Shown here: positions 5,430 through 31,816 of the stretch, one piece after another
Layout: every line of letters starts with the position of its first letter
Position numbering within the stretch: the stretch's first letter is position 1
NCBI GenBank assembly: GCA_963677105.1
Contig: OY781871.1
Location: 930,417-962,416, forward strand
Length of the DNA stretch: 32,000 nt
Direction of reading: 5' to 3'
DNA from: Candidatus Saccharimonadota bacterium
Lineage (GTDB): Bacteria; Patescibacteriota; Gracilibacteria; UBA4473
Program-made: the position numbers and the translations under genes
Notes under the pieces: generated by a model
Told to the model about the DNA's origin: nothing
Seen by the model: only the letters and a program-made list of their open reading frames with translations
Database searches by the model: none

Positions 5430-6056
5430 ATGCAAATCGTGCCAGAAATTCTCAAAAAAGTCGAACTTGCTGGAGCACAATTAGTTGCTGTGACGAAATA
5501 TTTTTCACCAGAGGAGACTAACAAGATTGTTTCTTATTTACGTAATACTGAGACAATTATTGGGTTTGGAGAAAACCGTGTTTCTCAAATTTCTGAAAAA
5601 AATATTGAGAGAAAGAAAATGCATTTCATTGGAAATATTCAATCTCGTGATATTCCTCAAATTTCAAAACATTGTTCAGTAATTCATTCTTTATGTTCTG
5701 TGAAACACGCAGAAATTTTAGCAAAACGAGAAGAATTACTAGCTGTTTTTATTCAAATAAATATTTCTCGTGAGCCTCAAAAATCAGGAATTATGCCAGA
5801 AGAATTAGAATCATTTTTGATCAAGATTCAAGAATATAATCTCGATATAAAAGGATTATCTGCAATAGGAGCAGGAGAATTTAATGAAAAACAAAAACGA
5901 GAAGAATTTCGGGAATTAATTTTTTTGCGAAACAAGTTTCTTCCAGGAAAAAAGATTTCTGCAGGAACTTCTCGAGATTTTGAAATCGCATTAGAAGAAG
6001 GAATAGAGATAGTTCGTATTGGAAGGGCGCTCTTTCAAAGTCCAAATAACAAATAA
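5430..6056 (+). CDS. yggS: YggS-family pyridoxal-phosphate-binding protein (alanine racemase N-terminal fold)
   Basis: LVAVTKYFSPEE carries the PLP lysine context, followed by GFGENRVSQ and a C-terminal IVRIGRALF. ATG 5430 is preferred because the track's upstream extension (5295) overlaps fmt and looks non-protein-like. Confidence 0.8.
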   Translation: MQIVPEILKKVELAGAQLVAVTKYFSPEETNKIVSYLRNTETIIGFGENRVSQISEKNIERKKMHFIGNIQSRDIPQISKHCSVIHSLCSVKHAEILAKREELLAVFIQINISREPQKSGIMPEELESFLIKIQEYNLDIKGLSAIGAGEFNEKQKREEFRELIFLRNKFLPGKKISAGTSRDFEIALEEGIEIVRIGRALFQSPNNK

Positions 6057-6169
6057 CAATTATCAAAGTATAAATTAAAATAAAACGAAGCAATCTTCGA
6101 AAAATTTTAGTCGAACATAAATAGTAGAAAAATATTGAAACTTTTTGAAAAATCTATACAAATAACGTG

Positions 6170-7078
6170 ATGGAAAAGTCCTCCCCAAAAACTTCGTTCA
6201 AGAGAGTTGCTATTTATACCCATAATAAGCCCTCAAAGGAAAAGGAGGAGAGCTTATTTATTAAAGAAAAAATAATTCCATTTTTAAAAGAACATGGAGT
6301 AAAAGAGGTTCATGGAGACATTAGAACAGTCTCATTAATGGAGAGCTCAATAGATCTTATTGATGATGAACAATCATATGATTTGAAAATTGGAATTGGG
6401 GGAGATGGGACATTATTAAAAATGATGAGAACGCTCCAAAAAAATGATGGTTTGTTTTTGGGAATTAATTTTGGAACGCTTGGTTTTTTAGCCGAATTAC
6501 ATCCTTCTCAGTGGAAAGAATCGTTAACACAGATTTTTAATGGAAAATATTTCGTTGATGAACGAATGTTATTGAAAGCTTTTGTGTGGAGGATGAATGC
6601 ACAAGGAGAGAAAGAAAAAATATTTCGAGCGTATGCATTAAATGATCTTGTGTTCGGACATGGAGGATTGGCACGTTTAACAAACTTTCGTGTACGAGTC
6701 GGACGTCGAAATCTTTCAATATATCGAGCAGACGGATTAATCTTTGCTACACCAACAGGAACCACTGCATATTCATTATCTGCGGGAGGACCAATTGTAT
6801 ATCCAGGACTTAGTGCCGTAACAGTAACACCAGTTGCACCACATCATTTAACTCATCGTCCGATTGTATTGGGAACAGATCGTGCTATAAATTTAGATTT
6901 TGATGCACGAGCAGAATCGGTTTCTTTCACTGTTGATGGACAGATTCATTTTTCAATGCGTCCGAGTGATGAAGTAACTATTCAGCGTGCAACGCGTACG
7001 GTTAAATTCATCCGATTAAAACAATCACATTTTTTTCGAACACTTCGTAATAAAATGGGCTGGGGAGAAAAAAAGTAA
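6170..7078 (+). CDS. nadK: NAD+ kinase
   Basis: Motifs GIGGDGTLL, ALNDLV and ADGLIFATPTGTTAYSLSAGGPIV. The start is either GTG 6167 or the adjacent ATG 6170. Confidence 0.9.
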   Translation: MEKSSPKTSFKRVAIYTHNKPSKEKEESLFIKEKIIPFLKEHGVKEVHGDIRTVSLMESSIDLIDDEQSYDLKIGIGGDGTLLKMMRTLQKNDGLFLGINFGTLGFLAELHPSQWKESLTQIFNGKYFVDERMLLKAFVWRMNAQGEKEKIFRAYALNDLVFGHGGLARLTNFRVRVGRRNLSIYRADGLIFATPTGTTAYSLSAGGPIVYPGLSAVTVTPVAPHHLTHRPIVLGTDRAINLDFDARAESVSFTVDGQIHFSMRPSDEVTIQRATRTVKFIRLKQSHFFRTLRNKMGWGEKK

Positions 7079-7149
7079 TCAAATATTAAAGTACAAATTA
7101 CAAACTTGATTCACTTTAAATCTTTATTAAATTTCATTACAATTCCTTT

Positions 7150-10100
7150 GTGAAAAACAAAATAAAAATCCTCCTGTTTTTATTAAGTCTGTTGTGCGGA
7201 TTTTTTCCTATGAATGTGATCGGAGAAATTGCTTCAGTCCAGCCAGCAAGATTGTATAAAGCAACTCATGCAGACAATAATTACGTAACATTTCCAAATG
7301 ATATTGGGAGTTTAAAAGGACATACTGTTCGATTTAGAACAATCTATGATTCTACGGTTTCTACATATGGTTTATTTGGAGCAACCGATTCAATAGGTCG
7401 TAGATTTGATATTTATTGTTATTCTGGTGGGTTTCGAGTATTTAATCCTAAAAATGCTACCTATTCGGAATACAGAAAATTTGGTGATTCTTTTGCCAAT
7501 GGAGATCTTTTAGATGTAGAGGTTACATGGAGTGATTTGGATGCAGTTGCTCCTACAGTAATCGTTAATGGAACTACATTGACGAGTGGTTCTGCAGGAA
7601 ACGTTGGACTAAGTGCTACAGTGAGCACGTTTTATCTTTATTCAATTGCAGTTGGAGGGGGAATAGGAAATTCTACATATGCGGGGAATAACTATCTTGG
7701 TGATGTGCGTGTTTATAATTCAAGCGATGAGTTGCTACACTCATGGCATTTAGATGAAGAAGAGGGAACAGTCGTGTATGACAGCATACAAGAGTGGGAA
7801 AGTGCAGAGTTAAATATTGGAAATGAGTTTATTCCATGGGGAGCTTCAGGATGGACTACACATACAAATGTTGCGGGAGGAGTTGAATTACAAAGTAATA
7901 CAAGCGCTGGAAGTTATACTGGAGTTGATCTAGATATGACCTGTGGAGAAGCCGATAATAAAACGTTTCGAGTTCAAGCAATTGTTGAGGTAACAAGTAT
8001 TGATACTGGAAATATAAATATAAAACTTGGTTCAGCTGGTGGTGGTTATACCGAATCAAGTGATCAGTATAGAATCTCAACTACGGGGACATTTTATATT
8101 GATGAGTTAATGGTCAAAGATTCATATATCGAAGAACATTCAACAATTCCTTTTGAGTTTTCTACATCGACAGATTCAGGTACAACAGCTACATATACGA
8201 TTTCTGATATTTCTGTAAAAGAAGTCCATGCACCTTCTCATGGAACAATATACAATGCGACTGAAAACACTTTTTTTACAGAAGATCCCCAATTTAAAAG
8301 TTATCAAAATGATTTTGGATACACAAATGTTATAAATAATAAAAGTGCGACTCGATATTGGGATACAGGTGTTACAGTTGGTTCTAGTGCAGATATTAAT
8401 CTCGAAAATTTAAAGGTAGAAGCACTTCTTAATGTTCAAACAGCGACAGCGAATCAATATGCTTTTCGAGTAACAAACAGTGGTACCGACGGAAGGTTCT
8501 ATGTTCGAAGTAATGGAACAGGTGGATTTCAATTTGGAAATGCTGAAATATACCCCGTTTCCACAGGTTTATTTGAAGTAGGTGAATGGATAAAAGTAAC
8601 GGCAGTAAGTCTTGATGGGATATATATAAATGATGTGAAAAAAATTGATACGAGTGAAGGGACGATTGGTACTCAAGCAGTAAACACACCATTACTTATT
8701 GGAAATACTTCAAATTCTTTATTACAAGGCATAAAGTATTTTAAAATTTACGACGGAGACACTCTAATAAAAATAATAACAGTTAATGATGATGGAGAAT
8801 TTGAAGATCAAGATGGGAATGTTTTAACAGCAAGTGGAACGGGAGATTATTCGAGTATGAAAATACCTGTTGTAATAGATAAAATGGGAATGGCTCAATC
8901 GAATGATGTAGCAGGTGGTTCTTTAGACTCTACGTATTCAGGAATTACTAAGAATGAAATACAATTGGCAGAATCAAATGTCGCCCAATTTGATGGAACA
9001 GATGATTGGGTGAAAATTCCAGGTTCAGGAACACCTTTTGCGGGGAAAGCTTTTACTAGATTTGAAACTAAAATATATCCGACTTCTACAGCGACATATC
9101 TTTCATTATTCGATACAGGAATGGGATATCAAATAAAAGGATGGAGATCTTTTTTAAATTCTTCAAATCAAGTGGCAACACAATTACATAGAAGTAGTGC
9201 TGTTGAGTCTATTACATCGACACTTTCTGTGAATTTGAATGAATGGAATACGGTACAAGTTGAAATTGATGAAGTTAATAAAAAAATGATTTATACAATA
9301 AATGGAACGAGTGAAGAAATTTCATATGTAAATGATTTCGTAAATGAATCTCATTCTGGTTATGCATGGGTTGGGTTTAGTGGAGGAATTTCCTATTACG
9401 GAGGTTTAATAGATTGGCTTGAATTTGATACAGAAGATAAAACCTATCGATATGATTTTGGAGAGGGAAATGGCGTTATTGTTTATGATAGAGTGCCAAC
9501 TGCTTACGGAGATAATTCAATAGTTAGTAATCTAGAAAATAGTACTCTAGCACCATATACAACTTTTACTTCTAATGGGTCAACAGGATTTGAAGCAGTA
9601 AGTGATGGAAGCGGAAGTCAGTATTGCGGAACAGCAGATGAAATAAGTATAATAACTGGAGAGAGTTATTTAGTAGAATTTGATTTAACTCTTAATAGTG
9701 GAACTGTGCCTTCTATAAGATTTTTATCTGGTGACGCAGCTGGTACGTCTTCAAATATTATTAATTCAGTAGAAGGTCATAATCAAGTTGTTTTAACAAC
9801 TACAAATACCACAACTGCTAGAATGCAGTTTAACAATCTCTCAGCGGTTGTCGATTTTGAAGTTTCTAATTTAACTATTAAAGAAATCTACTATCCAATT
9901 AATGGAACAATCACTAATGCAGATATAAATACTTTTTGGGTCACAGATAACACAACTTCAGCTGACAATCTGGTGAACGGATTTAGTGAAGCCAATATGT
10001 TAAACGGAGTAGATGATAAAACATTGATAACAGACTCTACGAATCTAGGTGGAACGAGAGCGGTAATTACTTGTCGGACAGATTCTTCTACTCGACAAGC

Positions 10101-12144
10101 AGTATTTTCTGGAGCATTTGATTCTTCTATTATTTATTTTGATTCTAGTGGATTGTTTGGTTCTGGAACGGCTGGTACGAGTGGAGTGTCAACAATAAAT
10201 GCTTGGAATGATGGAGAGTGGCATACTTTTGATATAACAAAAAATGGAACAAATGATTACACGATATTAGTAGATGGAGAGGATGATAGTGGAGGAGCTA
10301 GCACTGGATATAGGATAACAAATGCTGTTGGTATTGCACACAGTAGTCCCTTACTTCCTTTTGATGGAGAAATTAAAGAGATAGCTATTTATGACAATAG
10401 TGATGTGGTATTAGCTCATTATATAGCAGTAAGCGAGGGTAGATTCCAAGACACGGTTTCTGGTAATTATTATTCCAGTGATGGAAGTGGATATAAACAA
10501 ATAAATATTCCTTCTCAAATAGGAAATACGGGAGTAGATGTTAATGGAGATTTTTTGACAAATGTTCCGAAAGATCTGACGCATTCAGTTCTTGCCTATA
10601 AGACAGTGGGAAGTTTTGATGGAGTAGATGATTATATTGCACTTGGAGATATTGTACCTATTTACGACAGTTCTTTTACTGTTTCTATGTGGATTTATCA
10701 TTCAGCGATAGGGGATAGAGCGATTCTATTTGGAGATTATTCTGTTCCAGGATCAAATAATAGTATGAACCTTGAAATTCACACAGCAAATCAATTGCGA
10801 TTTTGGTGGGGAGGAAGTCCACAAGTATATGGTGCTAATAATACAATTCCTCTTAATGAATGGACGCATGTAACATTTGTGAGGGATAGGGAAAATAGTA
10901 AGGTGTATTCATACGTAAATGGCGTAAAAGACATTGATTACACAGGGGCAATTATTGATAGAACGCCTACTTCTGTTTCTTATATTGGGCGCGACGGAAG
11001 AACAGGAGCAACTGCTTTTGAAGGAAAAATAAGCGATTTTCGTGTATACGATCGTGCATTATCTGATGCAGAAATATTAAAACTTTATCAGAAGGAAAAT
11101 GTAGATTTAGGATTAGTTGCATATTATCCTTTTACAGAAGGAGCTGGCATAAACGTGTATGATGTGAAAGGAGATGATATTGCGACAATAAAAGAGACAA
11201 CTGCATCAGATTTTTGGGAGATAGATTCTACACTTCCATTTTCGCAATTAGAGAAAAATGGGTTCTCTCAAGCACTTGTAAATACAACGGATGGAACGGC
11301 TTATACGCCAAGCAATGTTGCGTATGGAGAATGGGAATTTGATCTCTATAAAGATGTTGGAAGTAACGTGAATTTTGTTCCTTTTATTAATTCTGACTCT
11401 GGAACAGGGGCATTAATGGATGGTTATGGTATTTTCTTTTATCCCACAACCAATACCATAGATTTCAGAAGATATGACGATGGTGTTTCGAGTCCGTTAA
11501 TGGCTACAGCGAGTGGTTATGTTGATAATAATACTTGGTATCGTCTTAAGATAACACGTTCTCTTTCTGGCGAGTTTACTATTTATATTAAAGGAGGAAG
11601 TTTTGGTTGGACGGATTGGACTGAAGTAGTTGAAAGTACGGGTTTAAATCCAAGAACAGATAATACTTACACAACATCGAATTATTTTGTCATAGATCTA
11701 GATGAAGGGGATGAAATAGCAAATGTTACGATTGGAAATCATAGAGCGACATTACATGAATTTGAAATGGGGACAGGGGAATATGAGAAAAAGTTTCTTC
11801 CAGCAAAAAATGGAAGTGGAACTGATGTATTAGGGAGCATATTACGATTATTTGGTAATGATACATCAAGAGCTTATACAACTTCAGATTTAGCAATAAT
11901 TGTTGCGAAGAGATTAGCAAAAGCAGGAGTAAATTATTGGAATTCTACAACACAAGAATTTCTGACTGGTCGAGCAGAAGGAACACTTGTAGATGTAACA
12001 TTAAATACAGATAAAATGAAAACAACAAGCGAGCTAGCTACTATTAGTAGTACAAATTCGGCGGAAGAAGGTCATCATTATTGGGACACTTTGTTGAGAA
12101 AATTTTTAATAGGACTTGCAAACGGAACATTGACAGACTTTTAG
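7150..12144 (+). CDS. Giant secreted multi-domain concanavalin A-like/LamG lectin-fold protein (1,664 aa)
   Basis: A GTG start gives the signal peptide KNKIKILLFLLSLLCGFF. One textbook LamG_3 module spans aa 1153-1314: FDGVDDYIALGD...SFTVSMWIY...NEWTHVTFVRD...VYSYVNGV...FEGKISDFRVYDRALSDAEILKLY. At least five more divergent copies of the same pattern and two CBM-like modules follow. Composition is N/T/S/G-rich with only 5 Cys. Confidence 0.85.
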   Translation: MKNKIKILLFLLSLLCGFFPMNVIGEIASVQPARLYKATHADNNYVTFPNDIGSLKGHTVRFRTIYDSTVSTYGLFGATDSIGRRFDIYCYSGGFRVFNPKNATYSEYRKFGDSFANGDLLDVEVTWSDLDAVAPTVIVNGTTLTSGSAGNVGLSATVSTFYLYSIAVGGGIGNSTYAGNNYLGDVRVYNSSDELLHSWHLDEEEGTVVYDSIQEWESAELNIGNEFIPWGASGWTTHTNVAGGVELQSNTSAGSYTGVDLDMTCGEADNKTFRVQAIVEVTSIDTGNINIKLGSAGGGYTESSDQYRISTTGTFYIDELMVKDSYIEEHSTIPFEFSTSTDSGTTATYTISDISVKEVHAPSHGTIYNATENTFFTEDPQFKSYQNDFGYTNVINNKSATRYWDTGVTVGSSADINLENLKVEALLNVQTATANQYAFRVTNSGTDGRFYVRSNGTGGFQFGNAEIYPVSTGLFEVGEWIKVTAVSLDGIYINDVKKIDTSEGTIGTQAVNTPLLIGNTSNSLLQGIKYFKIYDGDTLIKIITVNDDGEFEDQDGNVLTASGTGDYSSMKIPVVIDKMGMAQSNDVAGGSLDSTYSGITKNEIQLAESNVAQFDGTDDWVKIPGSGTPFAGKAFTRFETKIYPTSTATYLSLFDTGMGYQIKGWRSFLNSSNQVATQLHRSSAVESITSTLSVNLNEWNTVQVEIDEVNKKMIYTINGTSEEISYVNDFVNESHSGYAWVGFSGGISYYGGLIDWLEFDTEDKTYRYDFGEGNGVIVYDRVPTAYGDNSIVSNLENSTLAPYTTFTSNGSTGFEAVSDGSGSQYCGTADEISIITGESYLVEFDLTLNSGTVPSIRFLSGDAAGTSSNIINSVEGHNQVVLTTTNTTTARMQFNNLSAVVDFEVSNLTIKEIYYPINGTITNADINTFWVTDNTTSADNLVNGFSEANMLNGVDDKTLITDSTNLGGTRAVITCRTDSSTRQAVFSGAFDSSIIYFDSSGLFGSGTAGTSGVSTINAWNDGEWHTFDITKNGTNDYTILVDGEDDSGGASTGYRITNAVGIAHSSPLLPFDGEIKEIAIYDNSDVVLAHYIAVSEGRFQDTVSGNYYSSDGSGYKQINIPSQIGNTGVDVNGDFLTNVPKDLTHSVLAYKTVGSFDGVDDYIALGDIVPIYDSSFTVSMWIYHSAIGDRAILFGDYSVPGSNNSMNLEIHTANQLRFWWGGSPQVYGANNTIPLNEWTHVTFVRDRENSKVYSYVNGVKDIDYTGAIIDRTPTSVSYIGRDGRTGATAFEGKISDFRVYDRALSDAEILKLYQKENVDLGLVAYYPFTEGAGINVYDVKGDDIATIKETTASDFWEIDSTLPFSQLEKNGFSQALVNTTDGTAYTPSNVAYGEWEFDLYKDVGSNVNFVPFINSDSGTGALMDGYGIFFYPTTNTIDFRRYDDGVSSPLMATASGYVDNNTWYRLKITRSLSGEFTIYIKGGSFGWTDWTEVVESTGLNPRTDNTYTTSNYFVIDLDEGDEIANVTIGNHRATLHEFEMGTGEYEKKFLPAKNGSGTDVLGSILRLFGNDTSRAYTTSDLAIIVAKRLAKAGVNYWNSTTQEFLTGRAEGTLVDVTLNTDKMKTTSELATISSTNSAEEGHHYWDTLLRKFLIGLANGTLTDF

Positions 12145-15618: not shown

Positions 15619-17034
15619 ATGGAATTGGAAGCAATTATTGGTCTCGAAATACATGCACAACTTTCAACGGCATCAAAACTTTGGTGTGGTTGTGACAATG
15701 ACGCATTTGGAGCAGAACCTAATTCGCGAATTTGTCCTGTTTGTTGCGGATTTCCGGGAATGTTGCCCGTTCTAAATAAAGAAGCGTTGCGTTTAGCAAT
15801 GCGAGCATCAAAAGCATTGGGATGTGAGATACAAGAGTTTTCAAAGTTTGATCGTAAGAATTATTTTTATCCAGACTTACCGAATGGATATCAAATTACA
15901 CAATATGATCAACCGTTAGCATTGTCAGGAAAAGTGGAGATTATACACAACGGAAAACATAAAAAAATAGGTATTACTCGAATTCATATTGAAAATGACG
16001 CAGGAAAATTGACACATGAAAAAAAAGGAACATTCATTGATTTCAATAGAGCTGGATCACCTTTGATCGAAATTGTTACAGAACCAGAACTTCGTTCTCC
16101 ACAAGAAGCAAAAATTTTCGCCCAAGAATTGCAAAAGATTTTACGAGCCGTTGGTTCCTCAGAAGCAGATATGGAAAAAGGAATGATGCGATTTGATGCG
16201 TCAATTTCATTACGTCCCGTTGGAGACAAAAACTTATATCCACGGTCTGAAATAAAAAATTTAAACACATTTTCGGGATTAGCGCGTGCGCTTGAATTCG
16301 AAATAGAACGTCAAACAAAATTATGGGAGAAAAATGAACGTCCTCAATTAGAAACGACAAGAGGATTTGATGATGCGACAGGAAAAACGAAGTTGATGCG
16401 AAAAAAAGAATCAGCAGATGATTATCGTTATTTTCCAGAACCAGATTTGCCTCCATTACAGTTTACTCAAAAAGAAATAGAACAGTTGATAGGGGATTTG
16501 CCAGAATTACCGATTGAGAAATATATGCGTTATAAAAGCGAATTAGGGCTTACTGACGCAGAATCATTACGGTTATCTGAAGAACCAGCATTGGCAAAGT
16601 TTTTTGAAACAGCGCTTGAAAAATCAACAGAACCACGAAAAGTGGCGAATTTATTATTATCAGTGGTATTAGCAAAAACAAATTGGCAACAAACAGATAT
16701 TACGCCACAACATTTAGTAGAAGTGGTAGATTTGATTTCAGCAGGAAAAATATCGTCGACTGGAGGAAAACAGATTATAGAAGCGGCAATGAAAATGGGA
16801 AAATCGGCAATAGAATTAATGGATGATCTGGGGTTGAAACAGGTTTCAGATACGGGACAGCTTGAAGAATGGATTAATGAGATGTTAGAAGAAAACAACG
16901 AGACAGTAGAACAATTTCGTGCCGGAAAAGAGAAAGTATTAGGGTTTCTTGTGGGACAAGTTATGAAAAAATCATCAGGAAGTGCAAATCCATCTGTGGT
17001 TCAAGAAATATTATTGGGAAAATTAAAGCAATGA
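15619..17034 (+). CDS. gatB: Asp/Glu-tRNA(Asn/Gln) amidotransferase subunit B
   Basis: GLEIHAQL, CPVCCGFPGMLPVLN, RKNYFYPDLPNGYQITQ, IENDAGK, and the C-terminal YqeY-like tail GFLVGQVMKKSSGSANP. Confidence 0.95.
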   Translation: MELEAIIGLEIHAQLSTASKLWCGCDNDAFGAEPNSRICPVCCGFPGMLPVLNKEALRLAMRASKALGCEIQEFSKFDRKNYFYPDLPNGYQITQYDQPLALSGKVEIIHNGKHKKIGITRIHIENDAGKLTHEKKGTFIDFNRAGSPLIEIVTEPELRSPQEAKIFAQELQKILRAVGSSEADMEKGMMRFDASISLRPVGDKNLYPRSEIKNLNTFSGLARALEFEIERQTKLWEKNERPQLETTRGFDDATGKTKLMRKKESADDYRYFPEPDLPPLQFTQKEIEQLIGDLPELPIEKYMRYKSELGLTDAESLRLSEEPALAKFFETALEKSTEPRKVANLLLSVVLAKTNWQQTDITPQHLVEVVDLISAGKISSTGGKQIIEAAMKMGKSAIELMDDLGLKQVSDTGQLEEWINEMLEENNETVEQFRAGKEKVLGFLVGQVMKKSSGSANPSVVQEILLGKLKQ

Positions 17035-17924
17035 AATTCTTTTCGTTACCGAAAAAAGTAATAGTTATGGAATTATTATTGCTGAGTGTGAGTGTATTTT
17101 TTTTGTTTCTCGTATATAAAGGAAATACAGAGTTTCGTGTAGTTGGAACGATAGGATTATTATGTATTTTGTGGGGAAGTTTTATTGAGCCATTACTTTT
17201 AGTCATTCGAAAAAATGTTTTCCAAGAAGATTCTCTACAAGGATTACGAATAGCAGTGATATCGGATCTTCATATCGGGATATTTTGTTCGAAAAAAAAT
17301 CTAGCGCGCATTGTGCGAAAATTAAATACATTAGATGTAGACGCAGTTTTAATTCCCGGAGATTTTCTTTATGGAAAGGCAATAGATTTTGCAGGAGAAT
17401 TAGAACCACTTTCTCATATAAAAGCTCCAGTATTTGTGACACTCGGAAATCATGACCATATTTTTAAAGGAAAAGATTCGGGTATTTCTTTTTTGAGAAA
17501 AAAATTAGTATCGTTTGATGTCCGTGAGTTAAAAAATGAAGCAATTAAGTTCAAAGAAAATATTTGGTTTGTTGGAGTAGATGATAATGATTCGGGATTT
17601 GATGATTTATTGATAGCATTTCAAAATGTACCAGAAAATGCGGCAACTATTTTACTCGCGCATTCACCCGATATTCTACAAGAAAAACTTTCTGCTCGTG
17701 CAAACTTCATTATTACAGGACATACTCATGGCGGACAGATTCGTATGCCTTGGGGAAGTATTCCATTTGTAATTCCAATAAATGATTCAACGTATGATCG
17801 TGGATTATTTTCTGAAAAAAAGTTATTAGTAACTTCAGGAATAGGAATGGTCGGAATACATGCTCGATTTCTTAATCCGCCAGAAATACGAATAATTTCA
17901 TTTATTTCGTCGGATTCGAATTGA
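17031..17924 (+). CDS. Membrane-anchored calcineurin-like metallophosphoesterase (YkuE/YaeI-like), paralog 1
   Basis: Two N-terminal TM helices are followed by the MPE motifs SDLHIG, PGDF, GNHDH, LAHSPD and GHTHGGQI. Its ATG overlaps the gatB TGA (ATGA at 17031-17034). Confidence 0.8.
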   Translation: MKFFSLPKKVIVMELLLLSVSVFFLFLVYKGNTEFRVVGTIGLLCILWGSFIEPLLLVIRKNVFQEDSLQGLRIAVISDLHIGIFCSKKNLARIVRKLNTLDVDAVLIPGDFLYGKAIDFAGELEPLSHIKAPVFVTLGNHDHIFKGKDSGISFLRKKLVSFDVRELKNEAIKFKENIWFVGVDDNDSGFDDLLIAFQNVPENAATILLAHSPDILQEKLSARANFIITGHTHGGQIRMPWGSIPFVIPINDSTYDRGLFSEKKLLVTSGIGMVGIHARFLNPPEIRIISFISSDSN

Positions 17925-17993: not shown

Positions 17994-18242
17994 ATGTTTT
18001 TTCTTGAATACTCGCTTGAGGTAATGCAATTAGCATTTGGATTAGGATTTCTTGTCCTCGTGTTTTTTGTGGTTCGTCCGTTAATTCGGATTCATCGACT
18101 ACTTGCAAAGATTGATTATTTAGCGGATAAAATGGAAGGATTAGCAGAATTATTTGAAGAATATATTCGTAAACCAGCACAAGTTATGTCGCAGGTTTTA
18201 AAATTTGTATCACCTTTTTTGTTTCGTCGGAGAAAAAAATGA
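17994..18242 (+). CDS. Small membrane protein (one TM helix plus an amphipathic helix; DUF948-like architecture, tentative)
   Basis: MFFLEYSLEVMQLAFGLGFLVLVFFVVRP then LIRIHRLLAKIDYLADKMEGLAELFEEYIRK. Its stop overlaps the next ATG (ATGA at 18239-18242). ATG 17994 is preferred to the track's TTG 17940. Confidence 0.5.
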   Translation: MFFLEYSLEVMQLAFGLGFLVLVFFVVRPLIRIHRLLAKIDYLADKMEGLAELFEEYIRKPAQVMSQVLKFVSPFLFRRRKK

Positions 18243-19141
18243 AACACGTACCGTGGCCTGTTTTAGTCGCTGAGTTTGTTTGTTGGAGCGTGCTATTAGT
18301 GATTCCTTTATATATTTGGTTTGGAGATGTCCCTTTTGAATTAGTCTGGATATTGGGTGTTGGATGGATTATTTGGGCGTATATGCATTTTCTTGCTCCA
18401 AATTTTCTTATGACATACAAAGTGTCTTTGCCAAAAATAGGAAAACATGCATTAAAAATAGCTTTAATTGCAGATTTGCATGCTGGTCCATTTAAAGGAA
18501 CACGCTTCTTTAGACGTGTTGTAAAACGAATTAATAAAGAGTCTCCAGATATAATATTAATTCCTGGTGATTTTTTGTTGGGAACAGCTCAAAAGTTTGC
18601 AAAAAAATTAGAACCGCTAAAGGATCTTTGTACTCCAGCTTTTTATACATTAGGAAATCATGATCATTGGTTACATAATCCAAATGGAAAAGAGGCGGGA
18701 AGTTCATTTCTTCGAAAAAAATTAAAAGAATTTGGGCTTTGTGAATTAAAAAACAATGCAATAAAGTGGAAGAATCAAATATGGATAGCAGGAGTAGATG
18801 ATAATTATTATGGATATGATGATTTGGACAAAGCCTTTCAAAAAGTTCCAGATATGGAGGAAAGTATTTTATTGGCACATTCGCCGGATATCGTTGATAA
18901 ATTCAAAGATGAAAAAAGACCGGCGTTAACAGTATGTGGACATACGCATGGTGGACAAATGGCTTTCCCGTGGTTTATAAAACATATTCCTGATATTGTG
19001 TTTCATATTGTTCGACAAGAATTCGTTTGGGGGTGGTTTGGAAACGAACGTATGTTTGTGACAATGGGAGTTGGAGAATCCGGTTCACGTGCACGTTGGT
19101 GGGTTCGTCCGGAGGTTGCGATATTGAATTGTGTGGAATAA
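18239..19141 (+). CDS. Membrane-anchored calcineurin-like metallophosphoesterase, paralog 2
   Basis: Same architecture and motifs as 17031..17924: ADLHAG, PGDF, GNHDH, LAHSPD, GHTHGGQM. It aligns colinearly with paralog 1, for example SFLRKKL, ELKNNAIKWKNQIW/ELKNEAIKFKENIW, and GVDDN. Confidence 0.8.
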   Translation: MKHVPWPVLVAEFVCWSVLLVIPLYIWFGDVPFELVWILGVGWIIWAYMHFLAPNFLMTYKVSLPKIGKHALKIALIADLHAGPFKGTRFFRRVVKRINKESPDIILIPGDFLLGTAQKFAKKLEPLKDLCTPAFYTLGNHDHWLHNPNGKEAGSSFLRKKLKEFGLCELKNNAIKWKNQIWIAGVDDNYYGYDDLDKAFQKVPDMEESILLAHSPDIVDKFKDEKRPALTVCGHTHGGQMAFPWFIKHIPDIVFHIVRQEFVWGWFGNERMFVTMGVGESGSRARWWVRPEVAILNCVE

Positions 19142-25498: not shown

Positions 25499-25792
25499 TA
25501 TTTAAAAGCAAGATCAAGTAATTATTTACGTTTAGGTTATTTTTTGTGATATTCGAACGAACGACGTTGTCCAACAATTACCTTGTTCTTGTGTGTATAA
25601 TTTTTTTGTTCATCAGTATTTTATTGATACATTTTTTTGTTCAATCTTTTGTTTTTTTGTGAACGTGTTGAAAAAAATGTTTCACAAGAAGCCTTATCTG
25701 ATGCGAGGTCAACTTGTTTTGCACAAAAAAGATTTGACGAAAGAGGGGAAATCGAATACGTTTTTTGTACTAGACATTTCTGTGCAAAAAAA

Positions 25793-26368
25793 ATGCTCAA
25801 AAAGATTTTTGGATCCGGCGCCCGAGTGAAACTATTTCGACAGTTCTTATTAAATCCTAAGGAGGAATTTTTTATACGAGAACTTACACGTATTCTTGAT
25901 GAGCAGATTAATTCATTACGAAGAGAGCTTGCGAATTTAGAAAAAATTGGAATGCTTAAATCTTCAGAGCGAAACAGAAAGAAGTATTATAGATTGAATC
26001 CACATTGTCCCATTTTATCGGAATTGACTTCAATTATTCGTAAAAATGAGAAATCATATGTTACATTGCTTCAAAAAATATCTAAGCTCGGAGGAATTGA
26101 TATATTAATTCTTGGTGGACAATTTATTGGCAAAGAAGCAGATGTTGATTTATTTCTAGTTGGAGATGTTAAAAAAGAATCACTTGCAACATTTGTTGAT
26201 AAGGAATTCCCAGAGCAGCGAATTAAATTTTCTGTGATGCCACGGGAAGACTTTTTGTATCGAATGACTCTCAAAGATAAGTTTGTAAAAACATTGTTTG
26301 AAGAGAGAGAAAACATTATTTTGAAGAATAAGTTGAAAAAAGACACAGAGCCACTCGTTGTGCTTTGA
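25793..26368 (+). CDS. Winged-HTH (ArsR-like) domain fused to a minimal nucleotidyltransferase-like domain
   Basis: The N-terminal ARVKLFRQFLLNPKEEFFIRELTRILDEQINSLRRELANLEKIGMLK...KKYYRLN is wHTH-like. The C-terminal ILILGGQFIGKEADVDLFLVGD resembles the G[GS]x(n)DxD NTase motif. ATG 25793 is preferred; the track's upstream 52 aa look non-coding. Confidence 0.6.
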   Translation: MLKKIFGSGARVKLFRQFLLNPKEEFFIRELTRILDEQINSLRRELANLEKIGMLKSSERNRKKYYRLNPHCPILSELTSIIRKNEKSYVTLLQKISKLGGIDILILGGQFIGKEADVDLFLVGDVKKESLATFVDKEFPEQRIKFSVMPREDFLYRMTLKDKFVKTLFEERENIILKNKLKKDTEPLVVL

Positions 26369-27095: not shown

Positions 27096-27350
27096 ATGGA
27101 ATATATAGATATTATGGGATATATAGCTGGAATATTGGTTGTAATTTCATTGTTACCACAAACAATTAAAAGTTGGCGGACAAAATCAACAAAAGATTTA
27201 TCTTTATGGAGATATATTATTTATTGTATTGGTTTAATGCTTTGGATTGGATACGCGATTATTATTGGTAATGGACCAGTTGCAGTAATGAATAGTATTG
27301 GATTGTTTTTTTCACTTTCTATTTTGTATCTAAAGATTAGATATAAATAA
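27096..27350 (+). CDS. SemiSWEET (PQ-loop, 3-TM sugar transporter half-unit)
   Basis: The protein is 84 aa with three TM helices. The LLPQTIKSWRTKSTKDLS PQ-loop motif and overall colinearity match known bacterial SemiSWEETs. Confidence 0.8.
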   Translation: MEYIDIMGYIAGILVVISLLPQTIKSWRTKSTKDLSLWRYIIYCIGLMLWIGYAIIIGNGPVAVMNSIGLFFSLSILYLKIRYK

Positions 27351-27355
27351 TACAA

Positions 27356-29008
27356 TTATGCTACATCAGATTTCTCTCCTAAATACGTCGTATATAAATA
27401 ATTTGTTTGAGCAGGGAATTCTGCTGCAAGTGTGTCGACTTGTTTTGCAACAGGAATAATTTCGTGTTTCTTGCGTAGTTTCCGTATATTTATTGTTGTA
27501 GTTTTCATTCGTTCTGCTATTTCTATATCACTAAAGCCAAGTACTTTTGCTTGAAGAAGAAGTTCTTTATTTATGGATTCTCGTTTATCTAATTCACGAG
27601 CACATACAGCAATACGATCTAATTGTTGCAAAAACCATCGATCGATTTTTGTCATTTCCCAAATCTTTTCTACATCAAATATTTCTCGATAAAGAGCTTG
27701 TGTTACAGCGAATAATCGTCGCGGAGAAGCAATGCGAATGGAGCTTTCTAGTTCAGAATCTTTAAATTTAATTGGCGAACAGAGAACTCCGTTTGATCCG
27801 ATTGCAAGCATTCGAACAGCTTTTTGTACTACTTCTGGAAAATTTCGTCCAAGAGCCATAACTTCTCCAACAGATTTCATTTCCGTTGCAATTTGATGAC
27901 TTACTTTTCGAAATTTTTGCAAATCCCAACGGGGGATTTTTAGTGCAACATAATCAAGTGCAGGTTCAAAGAAAGCAGTTGTTTTTTGCGTAATTGCGTT
28001 TGGAATTTCTGGGAGATTTTTCCCGAGAAGAATTTCGGCAGCAACGGCTGCAAGTGGATATCCAGAAGCCTTTGAAGCAAGCGCAGAACTTCGACTCAAT
28101 CGGGCGTTTACTTCAATAACACGATACTGTGTATCATCATTTGGATTTAGTGCATATTGAATGTTACATTCTCCCACAATTCCTAAATGACGGATTGTTT
28201 TTATCGCAACGGTTCGAAGGAGCTGAAATTCTCGGTTTGCCAATGTCATAGAAGGACTAATAACAATCGATTCTCCAGTATGAATTCCCAAAGGATCAAA
28301 GTTTTCCATATTCAACACAGTAATACAGTTGTCTGAGTTGTCTCGAACAACTTCATACTCAATTTCTTTCCATCCACGCAAATCCTCTTCAACGAGAACT
28401 TGTGGAGAGAAGGCAAGCGCTTCTTTTACCATTTTTTCAAAATCTTCTGGTCTCTCACAAAATCCAGAACCTTTTCCTCCAAGAGCAAATCCGGCTCGCA
28501 TAATAAGAGGAAACCCAATTTTTTTCGAAGCAGCAATAGCGTCTTCTAGTGAATACGCAGCAATTGAACGAGGAGTGAAAACATCGATTTCTTTTAATTT
28601 TTGTACGAAAATTTCTCTATCTTCAGTAGACTCAATCACGTTTACTGCTGTTCCCAAAACTTTTATCCCAAACTTTTTTAAAATACCTGATTTCTCGAGA
28701 GCAAGACCACAATTAAGCGCAGTTTGTCCTCCGAAAGAAAGAGCAAGTGCATCAGGTTGTTCTTGAGCAATAACTTTTACTACAAACTCAGGTGTGACCG
28801 GAGAAAAGTAGACTTTATCTGCTCCACAAAAATGAGGATCGGTTTCTATCCATTGAGGATCAGTTTGTACAGTTGCAATATTTGGATTAATGAGAATTAC
28901 CTCATGTCCAGCTTTTTTAAAGGTTTTGATAGCTTGTGAGCCAGAATAATCAAACTCACCTGCTTCACCAATTTTTAGTGCTCCAGATCCAAGAAGTAAA
29001 ATTTTCAT
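27356..29008 (-). CDS. carB: Carbamoyl-phosphate synthase large subunit, N-terminal half only (carboxyphosphate ATP-grasp plus oligomerisation domain)
   Basis: The sequence is colinear with E. coli CarB residues about 1-555: ILLLGSGALKIGEAGEFDYSGSQA, GGQTALN, EYEVVRD.SDNCI, IEVNARLSRSSALASKA.G.PLA, MKSVGEVMA.GR. It ends at VDTLAAEFPAQTNYLYTTY, the exact junction where the second homologous half normally begins. Confidence 0.9.
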   Translation of the reverse strand: MKILLLGSGALKIGEAGEFDYSGSQAIKTFKKAGHEVILINPNIATVQTDPQWIETDPHFCGADKVYFSPVTPEFVVKVIAQEQPDALALSFGGQTALNCGLALEKSGILKKFGIKVLGTAVNVIESTEDREIFVQKLKEIDVFTPRSIAAYSLEDAIAASKKIGFPLIMRAGFALGGKGSGFCERPEDFEKMVKEALAFSPQVLVEEDLRGWKEIEYEVVRDNSDNCITVLNMENFDPLGIHTGESIVISPSMTLANREFQLLRTVAIKTIRHLGIVGECNIQYALNPNDDTQYRVIEVNARLSRSSALASKASGYPLAAVAAEILLGKNLPEIPNAITQKTTAFFEPALDYVALKIPRWDLQKFRKVSHQIATEMKSVGEVMALGRNFPEVVQKAVRMLAIGSNGVLCSPIKFKDSELESSIRIASPRRLFAVTQALYREIFDVEKIWEMTKIDRWFLQQLDRIAVCARELDKRESINKELLLQAKVLGFSDIEIAERMKTTTINIRKLRKKHEIIPVAKQVDTLAAEFPAQTNYLYTTYLGEKSDVA

Positions 29009-30090
29009 TTTTGTAATTGTTCTATAAATTCATCAAACAAATATTCTGCATCTTCTGGTCCAGCACAAGCTTCTGGATGAAATTGTGTTGCAGAAAAGGG
29101 AAGTGTTTTATGACGAATTCCTTCTACGGTTCCATCGTTTAAATTTTCAAACCAAACTTCCCAATCATTTGACAGCGATTTTTCATCGACTACAAATCCG
29201 TGATTTTGCGTTGTAATTAAGCAACGCCCAGAATGTTTGTCTCGAACGGGTTGATTTACTCCGCGATGTCCATATTTCATTTTTTTTGTTGCTCCATTAG
29301 AAGCGAGTCCGAGCATTTGACATCCAAGACAAATTCCAAATGTAGGAATCTTTCTATGAATCGCTTCTCGAGCAATTTCAATTGTTTCAGTCATAGTGTC
29401 AGGATCTCCTGGACCATTTGAAAAGAAAATTCCATCAAATTTTTCATTCAACTCAAATGGATTTTGATTAAAAGGAACGCGAATTATTCGGATTCCACGA
29501 CGAAGAAAATTTCTAAAAATACCGTTTTTTGCACCACAATCAACAAAAGCGATGGTTATTCCTATCGGCTTATGTGGTTCCATAATTTCCATTATTTGAG
29601 GACTTACTGATGGAACAAATCTTCCGCGTAATTCATCAGAATATTTTTTATCAGCATTTTTCCCAAGTTTTCCCAATACGGTTCCATGTTCTCGTAATGT
29701 TTGTGTTAATTGTCTTGTGTCAACACCAGAAAGAGCAGGAATATTTTGTTCTTTGAGCCAAGCTTGAAAACTTTTTACAGCAGTTGAGTGAGAATGTTTC
29801 AAGCTTTCTTCAGCAATTACGACTCCTCGAACCCAAATCTTTGGTGATTCAAAAGTTTTATCTACTTTTGGGGCATGTTTGTAACCTTCAAAGTTTTTTG
29901 GATTTGGAACTCCATAATTTCCAATTAAAGGAAAAGTGAAAACAACAATTTGTCCAAAATAACTGGGATCAGTAAGAACTTCGAGATAGCCAGTCATTCC
30001 TGTTGTAAAAACTACTTCGCCAGTGGCACTTGCATTTGCACCAAAAGATTGTCCAGAAAATTCTTGTCCGTCTGCGAGAAATAGTTTCAT
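29005..30090 (-). CDS. carA: Carbamoyl-phosphate synthase small (glutaminase) subunit
   Basis: FTTGMTGYLEVLTDPSY, the class-I GATase nucleophile elbow FGICLGCQML, and the His/Glu context QFHPEA. ATGA overlaps are present at both ends. Confidence 0.93.
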   Translation of the reverse strand: MKLFLADGQEFSGQSFGANASATGEVVFTTGMTGYLEVLTDPSYFGQIVVFTFPLIGNYGVPNPKNFEGYKHAPKVDKTFESPKIWVRGVVIAEESLKHSHSTAVKSFQAWLKEQNIPALSGVDTRQLTQTLREHGTVLGKLGKNADKKYSDELRGRFVPSVSPQIMEIMEPHKPIGITIAFVDCGAKNGIFRNFLRRGIRIIRVPFNQNPFELNEKFDGIFFSNGPGDPDTMTETIEIAREAIHRKIPTFGICLGCQMLGLASNGATKKMKYGHRGVNQPVRDKHSGRCLITTQNHGFVVDEKSLSNDWEVWFENLNDGTVEGIRHKTLPFSATQFHPEACAGPEDAEYLFDEFIEQLQK

Positions 30091-31523
30091 GATTCAGTAT
30101 CTAATTGCATTTGATGTGCTATTTGTAATATACGAGCTTCTTGCATTGCTGGTCCGATGATTTGAATACCAATTGGTAATTCTTCATCAGAAACTCCAGC
30201 AGGAAGAGAAATTCCACATTGTCCAGCAAGACACGATGGAGCAAGAAACATGTCTTCAAGATACATTTTTAATGGATCATCTAGATTTTCACCGACTTTG
30301 AAAGCAGGTGTTGGAGAAACAGGAGAAAGTATTGCATCTACATTTTTCCATGCTTCATCAAAATCTTGTCGAATAAGTGTCCGTACACGTTGAGCTTGTC
30401 TATAATATTGATCAGAGTATCCAGAAGAGAGAACAAAGGTTCCAATGAGAATTCGTCGTTTTACTTCATCACCAAATCCGGAAGATCGTGATTCTGTATA
30501 AATATTTTGTAAATCTTCCTTGTTTTTACATTCTCCAAAACGAAGTCCGTCGTATCGTGCCTGGTTTGATGAAATTTCTCCAGGAGCAATAATATAATAT
30601 GCGGCAACAGCATATTTAGCATGAGGTAGCTCAATATCAATAATTTTTGCACCAAGAGAACGAAGTTGTTCTTCCGTCGCAGACATTACTTGTGCTACAT
30701 CAGAATCGATACCATCTTGAAAGAATTTCCGAGGAATTCCTATTTTCATTCCGTGAATAGAACGATCGAGAGATGAAATATAATCAGGTACTTCAACATC
30801 AGGAGTTGTTGAATCTTTTTCATCATGTCCAGCGATTACTTGAAGCATCATGGCACAATCTTTTGCAGTCTTTGCCATTGGACCAACAACATCAAGTGAA
30901 CTCGCCATTGGCATTGTTCCCCAGCGAGAAACTCGCCCGTAAGAAACTTTTAATCCAGTAACACCACAGAAATGAGAAGGATGTCGAATAGATCCATTTG
31001 TTTCTGTTCCAATCGCTCCAGCACAAAAATTAGCAGCTAATGCTGCAGCAGAACCACCAGAACTTCCTCCAGCAACATAATCTGTATTATGTGGATTTCG
31101 CGTAACACCAAATGCAGAGGTTTGGGTACTTGCTCCCATTGTAAATTCATCAGTGTTTGTTTTTCCAATAAGAACTGCACCAGCATTTTTTAATTTCTCC
31201 CAAACAGTCGCGTCATATGGAGACTGAAAATCTTTTAAAATATTTGAAGAAGCCGTCGTTTTAGATTCGGTAGTGCAGACAACATCTTTTAGTGCAATTG
31301 GCATTCCATCGAGAGGAGAAAGAAGTTCATTATTTTTTCTTCGAGCGTCGGCATCGTCAGCCATTTCTCTCGCTATATCAAATGTTGGAGTAACAAATGC
31401 GTTGATCTCTTTTTCACGAGATTCTATTTCTACAATGAAGGCTTCAGTTATTTCTCGAGAACTAGCCTCTCCGCTGTGAAATAGCTCAGAAAGTTCGGAA
31501 AGTGTTTTTTTTGCAAGATTCAT
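30087..31523 (-). CDS. gatA: Glu-tRNA(Gln) amidotransferase subunit A
   Basis: Amidase signature GGSSGGSAAALAA...GTETNGSIRHPS. ATG 31523 is preferred; it forms an ATGA overlap with the gatC stop. The track start 31577 would overlap gatC by 58 nt. Confidence 0.93.
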   Translation of the reverse strand: MNLAKKTLSELSELFHSGEASSREITEAFIVEIESREKEINAFVTPTFDIAREMADDADARRKNNELLSPLDGMPIALKDVVCTTESKTTASSNILKDFQSPYDATVWEKLKNAGAVLIGKTNTDEFTMGASTQTSAFGVTRNPHNTDYVAGGSSGGSAAALAANFCAGAIGTETNGSIRHPSHFCGVTGLKVSYGRVSRWGTMPMASSLDVVGPMAKTAKDCAMMLQVIAGHDEKDSTTPDVEVPDYISSLDRSIHGMKIGIPRKFFQDGIDSDVAQVMSATEEQLRSLGAKIIDIELPHAKYAVAAYYIIAPGEISSNQARYDGLRFGECKNKEDLQNIYTESRSSGFGDEVKRRILIGTFVLSSGYSDQYYRQAQRVRTLIRQDFDEAWKNVDAILSPVSPTPAFKVGENLDDPLKMYLEDMFLAPSCLAGQCGISLPAGVSDEELPIGIQIIGPAMQEARILQIAHQMQLDTES

Positions 31524-31816
31524 TTCTGAATATTTGGAATATGAATTTTTTGTTTCTCTATAGGATGAGGTGAGCACTCAATTAATTCTTTTTCATAAGA
31601 ACAACGATCGATTTCATCTTCTCTCCAAACATTTTCAAGTCCAGTAGTTTGAGACGTTTCAGGCACATTTTTTGTATTTACTTCTTGAAGTTGTGCAAAA
31701 AAATGAACAATTTTATCAAGTTGTGGAGCAAACTTTGCCGCTTCCTCAGCAGAGAGCCTCAATTTAGAAAGCTGTGCAAGGTGTTTGATGTCGTCAGGGG
31801 AAATATTACTCTTCAT
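31520..31816 (-). CDS. gatC: Glu-tRNA(Gln) amidotransferase subunit C
   Basis: Sequence is IKHLAQLSKLRLSAEEAAKFAPQLDKIVHFFAQLQEVNTKNV...REDE. Size and position immediately upstream of gatA fit gatC. Confidence 0.88.
   Translation of the reverse strand: MKSNISPDDIKHLAQLSKLRLSAEEAAKFAPQLDKIVHFFAQLQEVNTKNVPETSQTTGLENVWREDEIDRCSYEKELIECSPHPIEKQKIHIPNIQK

Follow-up and report, generated by a model that had tools for sequence, protein, structure and literature searches.

What becomes of a carbamoyl phosphate synthetase (CPS) when its large subunit, CarB, ends where the second of its two homologous halves should begin? The question is raised by a 32,000-nucleotide stretch of DNA (the window) from contig OY781871.1 (positions 930,417 to 962,416 of the forward strand; assembly GCA_963677105.1), which is assigned to a Candidatus Saccharimonadota bacterium of the Gracilibacteria lineage UBA4473. 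The window contains an open reading frame (ORF) of 550 residues, here called carB(N). The original prediction, made from the letters of this DNA, described it as a half-size carB that comprises the carboxyphosphate and oligomerization domains only, and our domain searches bear this description out. The gene encodes a genuine stand-alone N-terminal CarB half (CPS.A) and is not an artefact. With a probability of about 0.5, we favor the reading that there is no CarB C-terminal half (CPS.B) at all, and that a natural (CarA.CarB-N)2 complex, present throughout the clade, would carry out both ATP-dependent steps at identical sites. Such an enzyme would be a reversion to the presumed homodimer that existed before the duplication of CarB, earlier than the last universal common ancestor, and would be its first unambiguous natural example.

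The matches of the carB(N) protein in Pfam are solely CPSase_L_D1, CPSase_L_D2, and CPSase_L_D3 (Table 1). The TIGR01369 model aligns over positions 8–549 of 1052 with 788.8 bits, below its cutoff of 1027, and NF003671 scores 688.5 bits, above its cutoff of 599. The best matches in the PDB are human CPS1 (715 bits) and then E. coli CarB (633 bits). In a MAFFT alignment with E. coli CarB (reference sequence from NC_000913), carB(N) is colinear with residues 9–554. Its last residue corresponds to E. coli residue 554, which is the junction of the two homologous CarB halves; the predicted end point, about residue 555, holds. According to TIGR01369 and the alignment, the second ATP-grasp unit, which phosphorylates carbamate, is not present in the carB(N) polypeptide. 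In addition, the MGS-like allosteric domain (PF02142) is matched neither in carB(N) nor in the Pfam lists of its half-size homologues. The tail ...PVAKQVDTLAAEFPAQTNYLYTTYLGEKSDVA runs into the second half in full-length CarB and forms the end of the protein in carB(N).

In the ORF listing, the protein ends with ...VDTLAAEFPAQTNYLYTTYLGEKSDVA, and the stop codon that follows is TAA (27356–27358, seen as tta on the forward strand), so that translation halts under every bacterial code. Genetic code 25, in which UGA is read as glycine in some Gracilibacteria, was considered as the cause of the stop and rejected, because the stop of carB(N) is TAA. The carA and gatA genes end in TGA, indicating that the standard code is in use.

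The half-size form is widespread among relatives. A homologue search of 5.8 billion proteins, with clusters counted at 90% identity, recovered more than 100 clusters of proteins with 539–580 residues that are 68–87% identical to carB(N) over the full length, all of them without a second half. The named members come from Candidatus Gracilibacteria, Peregrinibacteria, or plain 'bacterium', and a genome scan with the N-half adds Candidatus Peribacteria, Gracilibacteria, Patescibacteria UBA4473, and Candidatus Altimarinota. A half-size carB is present on two circular chromosomes, one of 1.30 Mb (OZ245819.1, a complete Candidatus Altimarinota chromosome of 1,295,315 bp) and a sibling of 1.33 Mb (ERZ25074695:ctg340501, 1,326,059 bp). 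At the DNA level, the window gene and 19 of 19 orthologous loci have their stop 0–2 residues past ...(N/D)D(V/I/A). Compared with orthologues of 85–87% identity, carB(N) shows a nonsynonymous divergence (dN) of 0.09–0.10 and a synonymous divergence (dS) of ~1.5–1.7, which corresponds to a dN/dS of ~0.06. The oligomerization domain is likewise constrained, with a low dN/dS.

These data bear on the possibility, already raised in the original prediction, that the stop at 27356–27358 is an assembly or frameshift artefact, or, in a wider form, that the gene is a decaying pseudogene, the remnant of a carB under loss. Isolated truncated carB ORFs do exist, for example a 562-residue ORF on contig L068. 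However, more than 100 clusters, drawn from independent assemblies that include circular chromosomes, share this stop position, the dN/dS is ~0.06, the stop is TAA, and the minus strand past the stop has no coding potential for a C-half in any frame. The conservation of the stop across the clade together with strong purifying selection refutes the artefact alternative, which we regard as extremely improbable in either form.

The L068 locus deserves a description of its own. L068 is an unrelated high-GC metagenome contig that carries pyrG-purF-carA-carB at 5919–8863. The carB ORF of just 562 residues ends with ...TNYLYLTY, and an Xaa-Pro-peptidase-like gene comes next. Here a carB of the Bacteroidota type has been cut short independently at nearly the same boundary; a pseudogene, a chimeric assembly, and a second natural half are all conceivable.

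Is the second half encoded elsewhere? The original prediction stated that no C-half sits in the operon and that a convergent SemiSWEET gene lies only 5 nt away. Both statements hold: the two stop codons are 5 nt apart, and tblastn of the 32-kb window with a C-half bait (residues ~554–942 of P0106, the closest full-length relative) yields only the expected 28% cross-match to the ATP-grasp domain of the N-half. The same bait was run against 20 half-size contexts, which span 70–87% identity to carB(N) and cover ~20 kb per genome (~396 kb in total, within ~10 kb of the gene). In 20 of 20, it matches only the N-half, at 27–30% identity. As a control, the bait matches the fused C-half at 59–71% identity in most Bacteroides and other full-length loci, and at ~40–58% in distant lineages. 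The control loci with no C-half match are short contigs, contigs that end in or just after the N-half, and the truncated ORF of L068.

We also searched with HMMER, using the same bait, through all of 1.84 billion representatives at 50% identity, which gave 1716 matches at E < 1e-30. Among the best 150 of the 1716 (at least 398 bits), there is no credible stand-alone C-half from the half-size lineage. Short matches of a single stretch (P0174, P0194, P0209, P0256, P0257, and others) were rejected as fragments, eukaryote-like pieces, or a partial Geothermarchaeota protein. P0220 (853 residues; C-half, allosteric domain, and PyrB) begins exactly at the start of the C-half and was considered as a partner. 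It was rejected as a fragment, since it begins at nt 22 of a 3.4-kb contig and has CarB-PyrB fusions of 1,400 residues as relatives. These searches argue against a linked or easily recognizable C-half gene and leave room for an unlinked one. That the C-half is absent from the whole genome is an inference, which we put at roughly even odds.

Fusions of this kind are an observation in their own right. P0271, P0272, P0273, and P0135 are bacterial proteins of ~1,400 residues in which a complete CarB, with both halves and the allosteric domain, is fused to aspartate carbamoyltransferase. They resemble the CAD/URA2 arrangement minus the glutaminase and the dihydroorotase.

The residues that would be needed for catalysis are in place. 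We take the residue roles to be those assigned in the E. coli literature, and these residues carry E. coli numbers. In a MAFFT alignment, the carboxyphosphate site (R129, R169, E215, H243, Q285, E299, N301, R303, and R306), the K+ loop (E215, N236, D238, and S247), and the N-half wall of the carbamate tunnel (I20, A23, E25, M378, V381, and E383) are kept in the window protein and in 14 relatives. The original prediction had also raised the possibility of a different carboxylate-activating activity. This is unsupported, since all CarB-specific catalytic and tunnel residues are kept, as is the CarA partner.

When the two halves of E. coli CarB are aligned with each other, E25/E577, R306/R848, M378/M911, and E383/E916 occupy pseudo-symmetric positions, and all catalytic residues are identical. 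Because the N-half residues have identical counterparts in the C-half, a dimer of two N-halves about the native two-fold axis would rebuild the tunnel and a second competent site. In the proposed mechanism, two CarA-CarB(N) protomers would associate about the two-fold axis that relates the halves of canonical CarB. One ATP-grasp site of (CarA.CarB-N)2 would phosphorylate bicarbonate and capture the ammonia derived from CarA, producing carbamate. The carbamate would travel through a tunnel that is now truly symmetric and reach the partner's identical site, where it would be phosphorylated to carbamoyl phosphate. As the allosteric domain is missing, regulation by uridine monophosphate (UMP), inosine monophosphate (IMP), or ornithine would be absent. 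We infer the dimeric state and the activity of CarB(N), and we put at roughly even odds that a natural stand-alone CPS.A pairs with CarA and makes carbamoyl phosphate as a dimer of identical halves.

The homodimer is consistent with everything seen, and it has a sound biochemical basis, since CPS.A and CPS.B halves made by engineering both work (Guy & Evans 1996; Guy et al. 1997; both cited in PMC6245113). According to the same source, each half folds independently and the two are equivalent in function (PMC6245113). The title of a further study cited there reads 'Half of S. cerevisiae CPS produces and channels carbamoyl phosphate' (Serre et al. 1999, in PMC6245113). Engineered half-enzymes that pair the glutaminase (GLN) with either half, namely GLN-CPS.A and GLN-CPS.B from mammalian CAD and E. 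coli CPS, have been reported to perform the whole glutamine-dependent synthesis in dimeric form (Guy & Evans 1996; Guy, Bouvier & Evans 1997; Serre et al. 1999; cited in PMC6245113). Like the proposed (CarA.CarB-N)2, they combine one synthetase half with a glutaminase. They are laboratory constructs, whereas carB(N) would be natural, present throughout a clade, under purifying selection, and with the oligomerization domain kept.

A natural homodimeric CPS with a single ATP-grasp unit has been claimed before, namely the 41-kDa 'smallest CPS' of Methanobrevibacter smithii (Popa et al. 2012). The CPS role of this protein is disputed, because ATP-grasp phylogenies never place it with CarB and its gene is part of a pseudomurein cluster (PMC11915815). 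In contrast, carB(N) is an unambiguous CarB N-half, as judged from its TIGR01369 score, and has a CarA partner.

Several points weigh against the homodimer. The conserved tunnel residues are equally expected if a separate C-half is the partner, and the activity ascribed to carB(N) is a prediction from sequence. About 20 kb was seen of each genome of ~1–1.3 Mb (~2%), so that a randomly placed C-half gene would be missed ~98% of the time. The clusters of the protein library may combine short and long proteins, which was observed at the 90% level, and therefore a C-half could hide under a full-length representative. In addition, natural stand-alone N-halves with a separate C-half are known. In Methanocaldococcus jannaschii, carB is split into an N-half gene and a C-half gene in adjacent regions, and its stand-alone N-half thus has a separate C-half. 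As in carB(N), the fission is natural and lies at the boundary between the halves; unlike in carB(N), both halves are present and close together, and the organism is an archaeon.

The stand-alone N-half of Aquifex likewise has a separate C-half, which is unlinked (PMC6022934). The split CPS of Aquifex aeolicus is encoded by separate genes for GLN, CPS.A, and CPS.B (Ahuja et al. 2001, described in PMC6022934), and CPS.A and CPS.B in isolated form each carry out both ATP-dependent partial reactions (PMC6022934). In both systems, the N-half is separate, has ~550 residues, and ends at the same domain boundary, and CarA is separate. The differences are that Aquifex has a CPS.B gene and an active enzyme that is a 1:1:1 complex, whereas CPS.B was found here in no neighborhood or protein search; that carA and carB(N) are co-operonic here; and that carB(N) has an independent origin within the candidate phyla radiation (CPR), from a eukaryote-like/Bacteroidota-like type of CarB.

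The chief alternative follows the Aquifex model. Here carB would be an ordinary split gene, and the product of an unlinked CPS.B gene, with or without the allosteric domain, would complete a CarA, CPS.A, and CPS.B heterotrimer. An intact N-half, conserved tunnel residues, coupling to CarA, and purifying selection would be expected equally in this case, and an unlinked gene would be missed in the ~2% of each genome that is visible. The complete genome of Ca. Peribacter riflensis encodes CarA (376 residues), a full-length CarB (1096 residues) whose gene is unlinked to carA, PyrB, and PyrC (PMC4736985, supplement 2). Its carA and carB are ~130 kb apart, indicating that clustering of the CPS genes is not obligatory in this group. 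However, no C-half lies within ~10 kb in the 20 contexts, although the linkage of carA to carB(N) is nearly always kept; no stand-alone C-half related to the sister clade is found among the best 150 of the 1716 representatives; and the sole candidate that starts exactly at the C-half, P0220, is a contig-edge fragment. In addition, a fission followed by relocation before the radiation of the clade is less parsimonious than a simple 3′ deletion. In every test run, a split gene looks identical to a homodimer, save in the negative neighborhood and representative searches. We consider the split gene a serious possibility, somewhat short of an even chance.

The origin of the half-size family can be placed within the CPR. 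In a neighbor-joining tree of the N-half region, the half-size proteins are monophyletic and sit on a short stem branch. Their sister group consists of the full-length Patescibacteria/Peregrinibacteria CarBs P0092, P0106, P0110, and P0114, which are 59–62% identical over the N-half. Other CPR, DPANN, and Bacteroidota CarBs are next out, and E. coli CarB is the outgroup. The sister proteins and the 1096-residue CarB of Ca. P. riflensis share the phylogenetic neighborhood of carB(N) but possess the second ATP-grasp half, and the complete members have the allosteric domain as well. In Ca. P. riflensis and L005, carB is not beside carA, unlike carB(N). The gene set of Ca. P. riflensis indicates that this part of the CPR ancestrally had a canonical CPS feeding pyrimidine synthesis. 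Judging from the tree, the truncation or fission arose once, at the base of the Peribacteria/Gracilibacteria/Altimarinota clade, from a full-length CPR CarB.

The lengths of the closest relatives are peculiar in one respect. The top 'full-length' relatives, P0092 and P0106–P0120, all have 916–958 residues and end near the start of the allosteric domain, an odd clustering of break points. A class of CarB lacking the allosteric domain was considered and rejected: P0092 is cut by the contig end, and several others, which have junk tails (...GRASCRERV, ...RRSEER), are probably chimeric or contig-end fragments.

The half-size family has a signature of its own, YPLAAVAAEI, compared with YPLA[YFH][VI]AAKL in full-length relatives. 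The loop after QTD (residues ~47–62; window 28820–28870) reads PQWIETDPHFCGA, compared with SKGLA in full-length relatives, and is ~8 residues longer. P0067 lacks this loop, and in P0100/P0103 it has grown to ~30 residues. Together, the loop and the signature could be adaptations of a dimer interface. A metagenome scan for GYPLAAVAA returned mostly full-length CarBs of other phyla and just two new loci of the family.

The same two features can be read in another way, namely as marks of a neofunctionalized half. CarA and CarB(N) would then make only carbamate or carboxyphosphate, and an unrelated enzyme, for example a carbamate kinase of the ArcC type, would finish the reaction, or the pair would serve another carboxylation or amidation. 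The native chemistry of the N-half stops at carbamate, and CPR bacteria often carry enzymes of the arginine deiminase pathway, including carbamate kinase. However, every catalytic and tunnel residue specific to CarB is kept, and the family has a short stem branch. A carbamate kinase or other candidate partner recurs in 0 of 20 neighborhoods. Moreover, free carbamate decomposes and is channeled in known CPSs (PMC6022934). We regard a neofunctionalized half as unlikely.

The carB(N) gene is the last of a tight gatC-gatA-carA-carB(N) operon, an order that is found again in most relatives. The TGA stop of carA overlaps the ATG of carB(N) (ATGA), which implies 1:1 co-translation. CarA is canonical, and its catalytic triad (C269/H353/E355) is intact. 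The SemiSWEET gene bounds the operon in convergent orientation and is functionally outside it; relatives lack SemiSWEET at that position and mostly have rplS (L19), hyp genes, or others as the downstream neighbor. Two lineages have no carA within 10 kb of carB(N). The junction between carA and carB(N) is a hot spot of insertion in relatives, yet both genes stay neighbors. The inserted genes encode an ABC transporter ATPase and permease, a methyltransferase, a HicA-type toxin or toxin-antitoxin, an AAA_33 kinase-like protein, and ORFs with no assigned function. Despite these insertions, a third CPS piece is never seen at the carA-carB(N) loci. The coordinates are collected in Table 1.

Table 1 Features of the carB(N) locus in the window and of related loci on other contigs (contig given where it is not the window).
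Feature	Coordinates	Strand	Details
carB(N), stand-alone N-terminal half of the CPS large subunit (CPS.A)	27356..29008	-	550 residues; ATG start; TAA stop 27356-27358
Pre-ATP-grasp domain, CPSase_L_D1	28631..29005	-	Residues 2-126; PF25596, 131 bits; includes the longer loop after QTD
ATP-binding ATP-grasp domain, CPSase_L_D2	28007..28621	-	Residues 130-334; PF02786, 233.7 bits
Oligomerization domain, CPSase_L_D3	27512..27739	-	Residues 424-499; PF02787, 80.9 bits
C-terminal tail ...PVAKQVDTLAAEFPAQTNYLYTTYLGEKSDVA	27359..27451	-	Near-invariant in the half-size family; stop position kept
carA, glutamine amidotransferase small subunit	29005..30090	-	361 residues; TIGR01368, 407.9 bits (cutoff 307)
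gatA, amidase subunit of Glu/Asp-tRNA amidotransferase	30087..31577	-	PF01425, 489 bits; stop shares an ATGA overlap with the start of carA
gatC, first gene of the block	31520..31816	-	98-residue ORF; GatC is the Pfam match of the relatives' orthologue
SemiSWEET transporter	27096..27350	+	NF037968, 82 bits (cutoff 80); PQ-loop/MtN3_slv
hyp and hydrogenase genes	L002/L003/L004 11704-16636, 17608-21644 (also L015); L126 5970-16438		Fer4_22, NAD_binding_1/DHODB_Fe-S_bind, Oxidored_q6
Insertions at the carA-carB(N) junction	L001 8375-9990; L007 7738-9940; L120 8351-9969; L123 9453-9900; L121 9139-9936		

The carbamoyl phosphate most probably feeds pyrimidine synthesis as the default sink, because the close relative Ca. 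P. riflensis has pyrB and pyrC. The genes purF, purM, and purC are found near the carB(N) locus in several relatives. A second use is suggested by the P0083 lineage, in which hypE-hypD-hypC-(hypA)-hypF lie immediately downstream of the half-size carB in convergent orientation, with genes for a group 3b-like [NiFe]-hydrogenase next to them. HypF uses carbamoyl phosphate. On CAYFJZ010000001.1 (Peribacteria, 499,835 bp), the HypF/hydrogenase gene set is ~200 kb from carB(N), and no hyp genes are near carB(N) in the other contexts examined. A dedicated supply for [NiFe]-hydrogenase maturation was rejected as a general role, as there are ~12 HypF clusters (at least 49% identity) compared with more than 100 half-CarB clusters. 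The small number of HypF clusters and the contexts in which hyp genes are not nearby indicate that HypF is at most an additional sink in some members.

The other genes of the window (priA, fmt, NAD kinase, H+-PPase, pgk, gatB, proS, trigger factor, and rplS) are housekeeping genes typical of the CPR. Among the remaining ORFs, three observations stand apart from CPS. A 1,664-residue ORF (7150–12144, forward strand) contains two Laminin_G_3 (concanavalin-like) domains, and this laminin-G surface protein probably belongs among the very large extracellular proteins that have been reported for Peribacteria. Directly after gatB, two paralogous genes for calcineurin-like phosphoesterases (Metallophos) of ~300 residues each (17031–17924 and 18239–19141, forward strand) flank a 100-residue ORF. 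Between trigger factor and rplS, an ORF with no Pfam match (25637–26368, forward strand; ~190–243 residues) is conserved throughout the lineage; its orthologues (L009 12700–13275, L010 3681–4412, and L017 12315–12959) are 64–90% identical among relatives.

We found no description in the literature of a half-size CarB in Gracilibacteria, Peregrinibacteria, or the CPR. If the genomes of the clade encode no C-half, the family would be the first convincing natural CPS built from a single half. If an unlinked C-half exists, it would be the third independent bacterial case of carB fission, a result of modest interest. Annotation by score threshold may call carB absent or 'partial' in these genomes, as the protein scores below the TIGR01369 cutoff. 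This loss in annotation may add to the scoring of UMP synthesis as incomplete in reconstructions of Gracilibacteria (PMC9166423).

That one half can sustain the whole CPS reaction has so far been shown only with engineered fragments. A natural pair of CarA and CarB(N), if the homodimer is true, would directly test the idea that the ancestral CPS was homodimeric. It would also offer a minimal, unregulated CPS for structural and synthetic-biology work, and it would show to what extent a universally conserved enzyme can be cut back during genome reduction.

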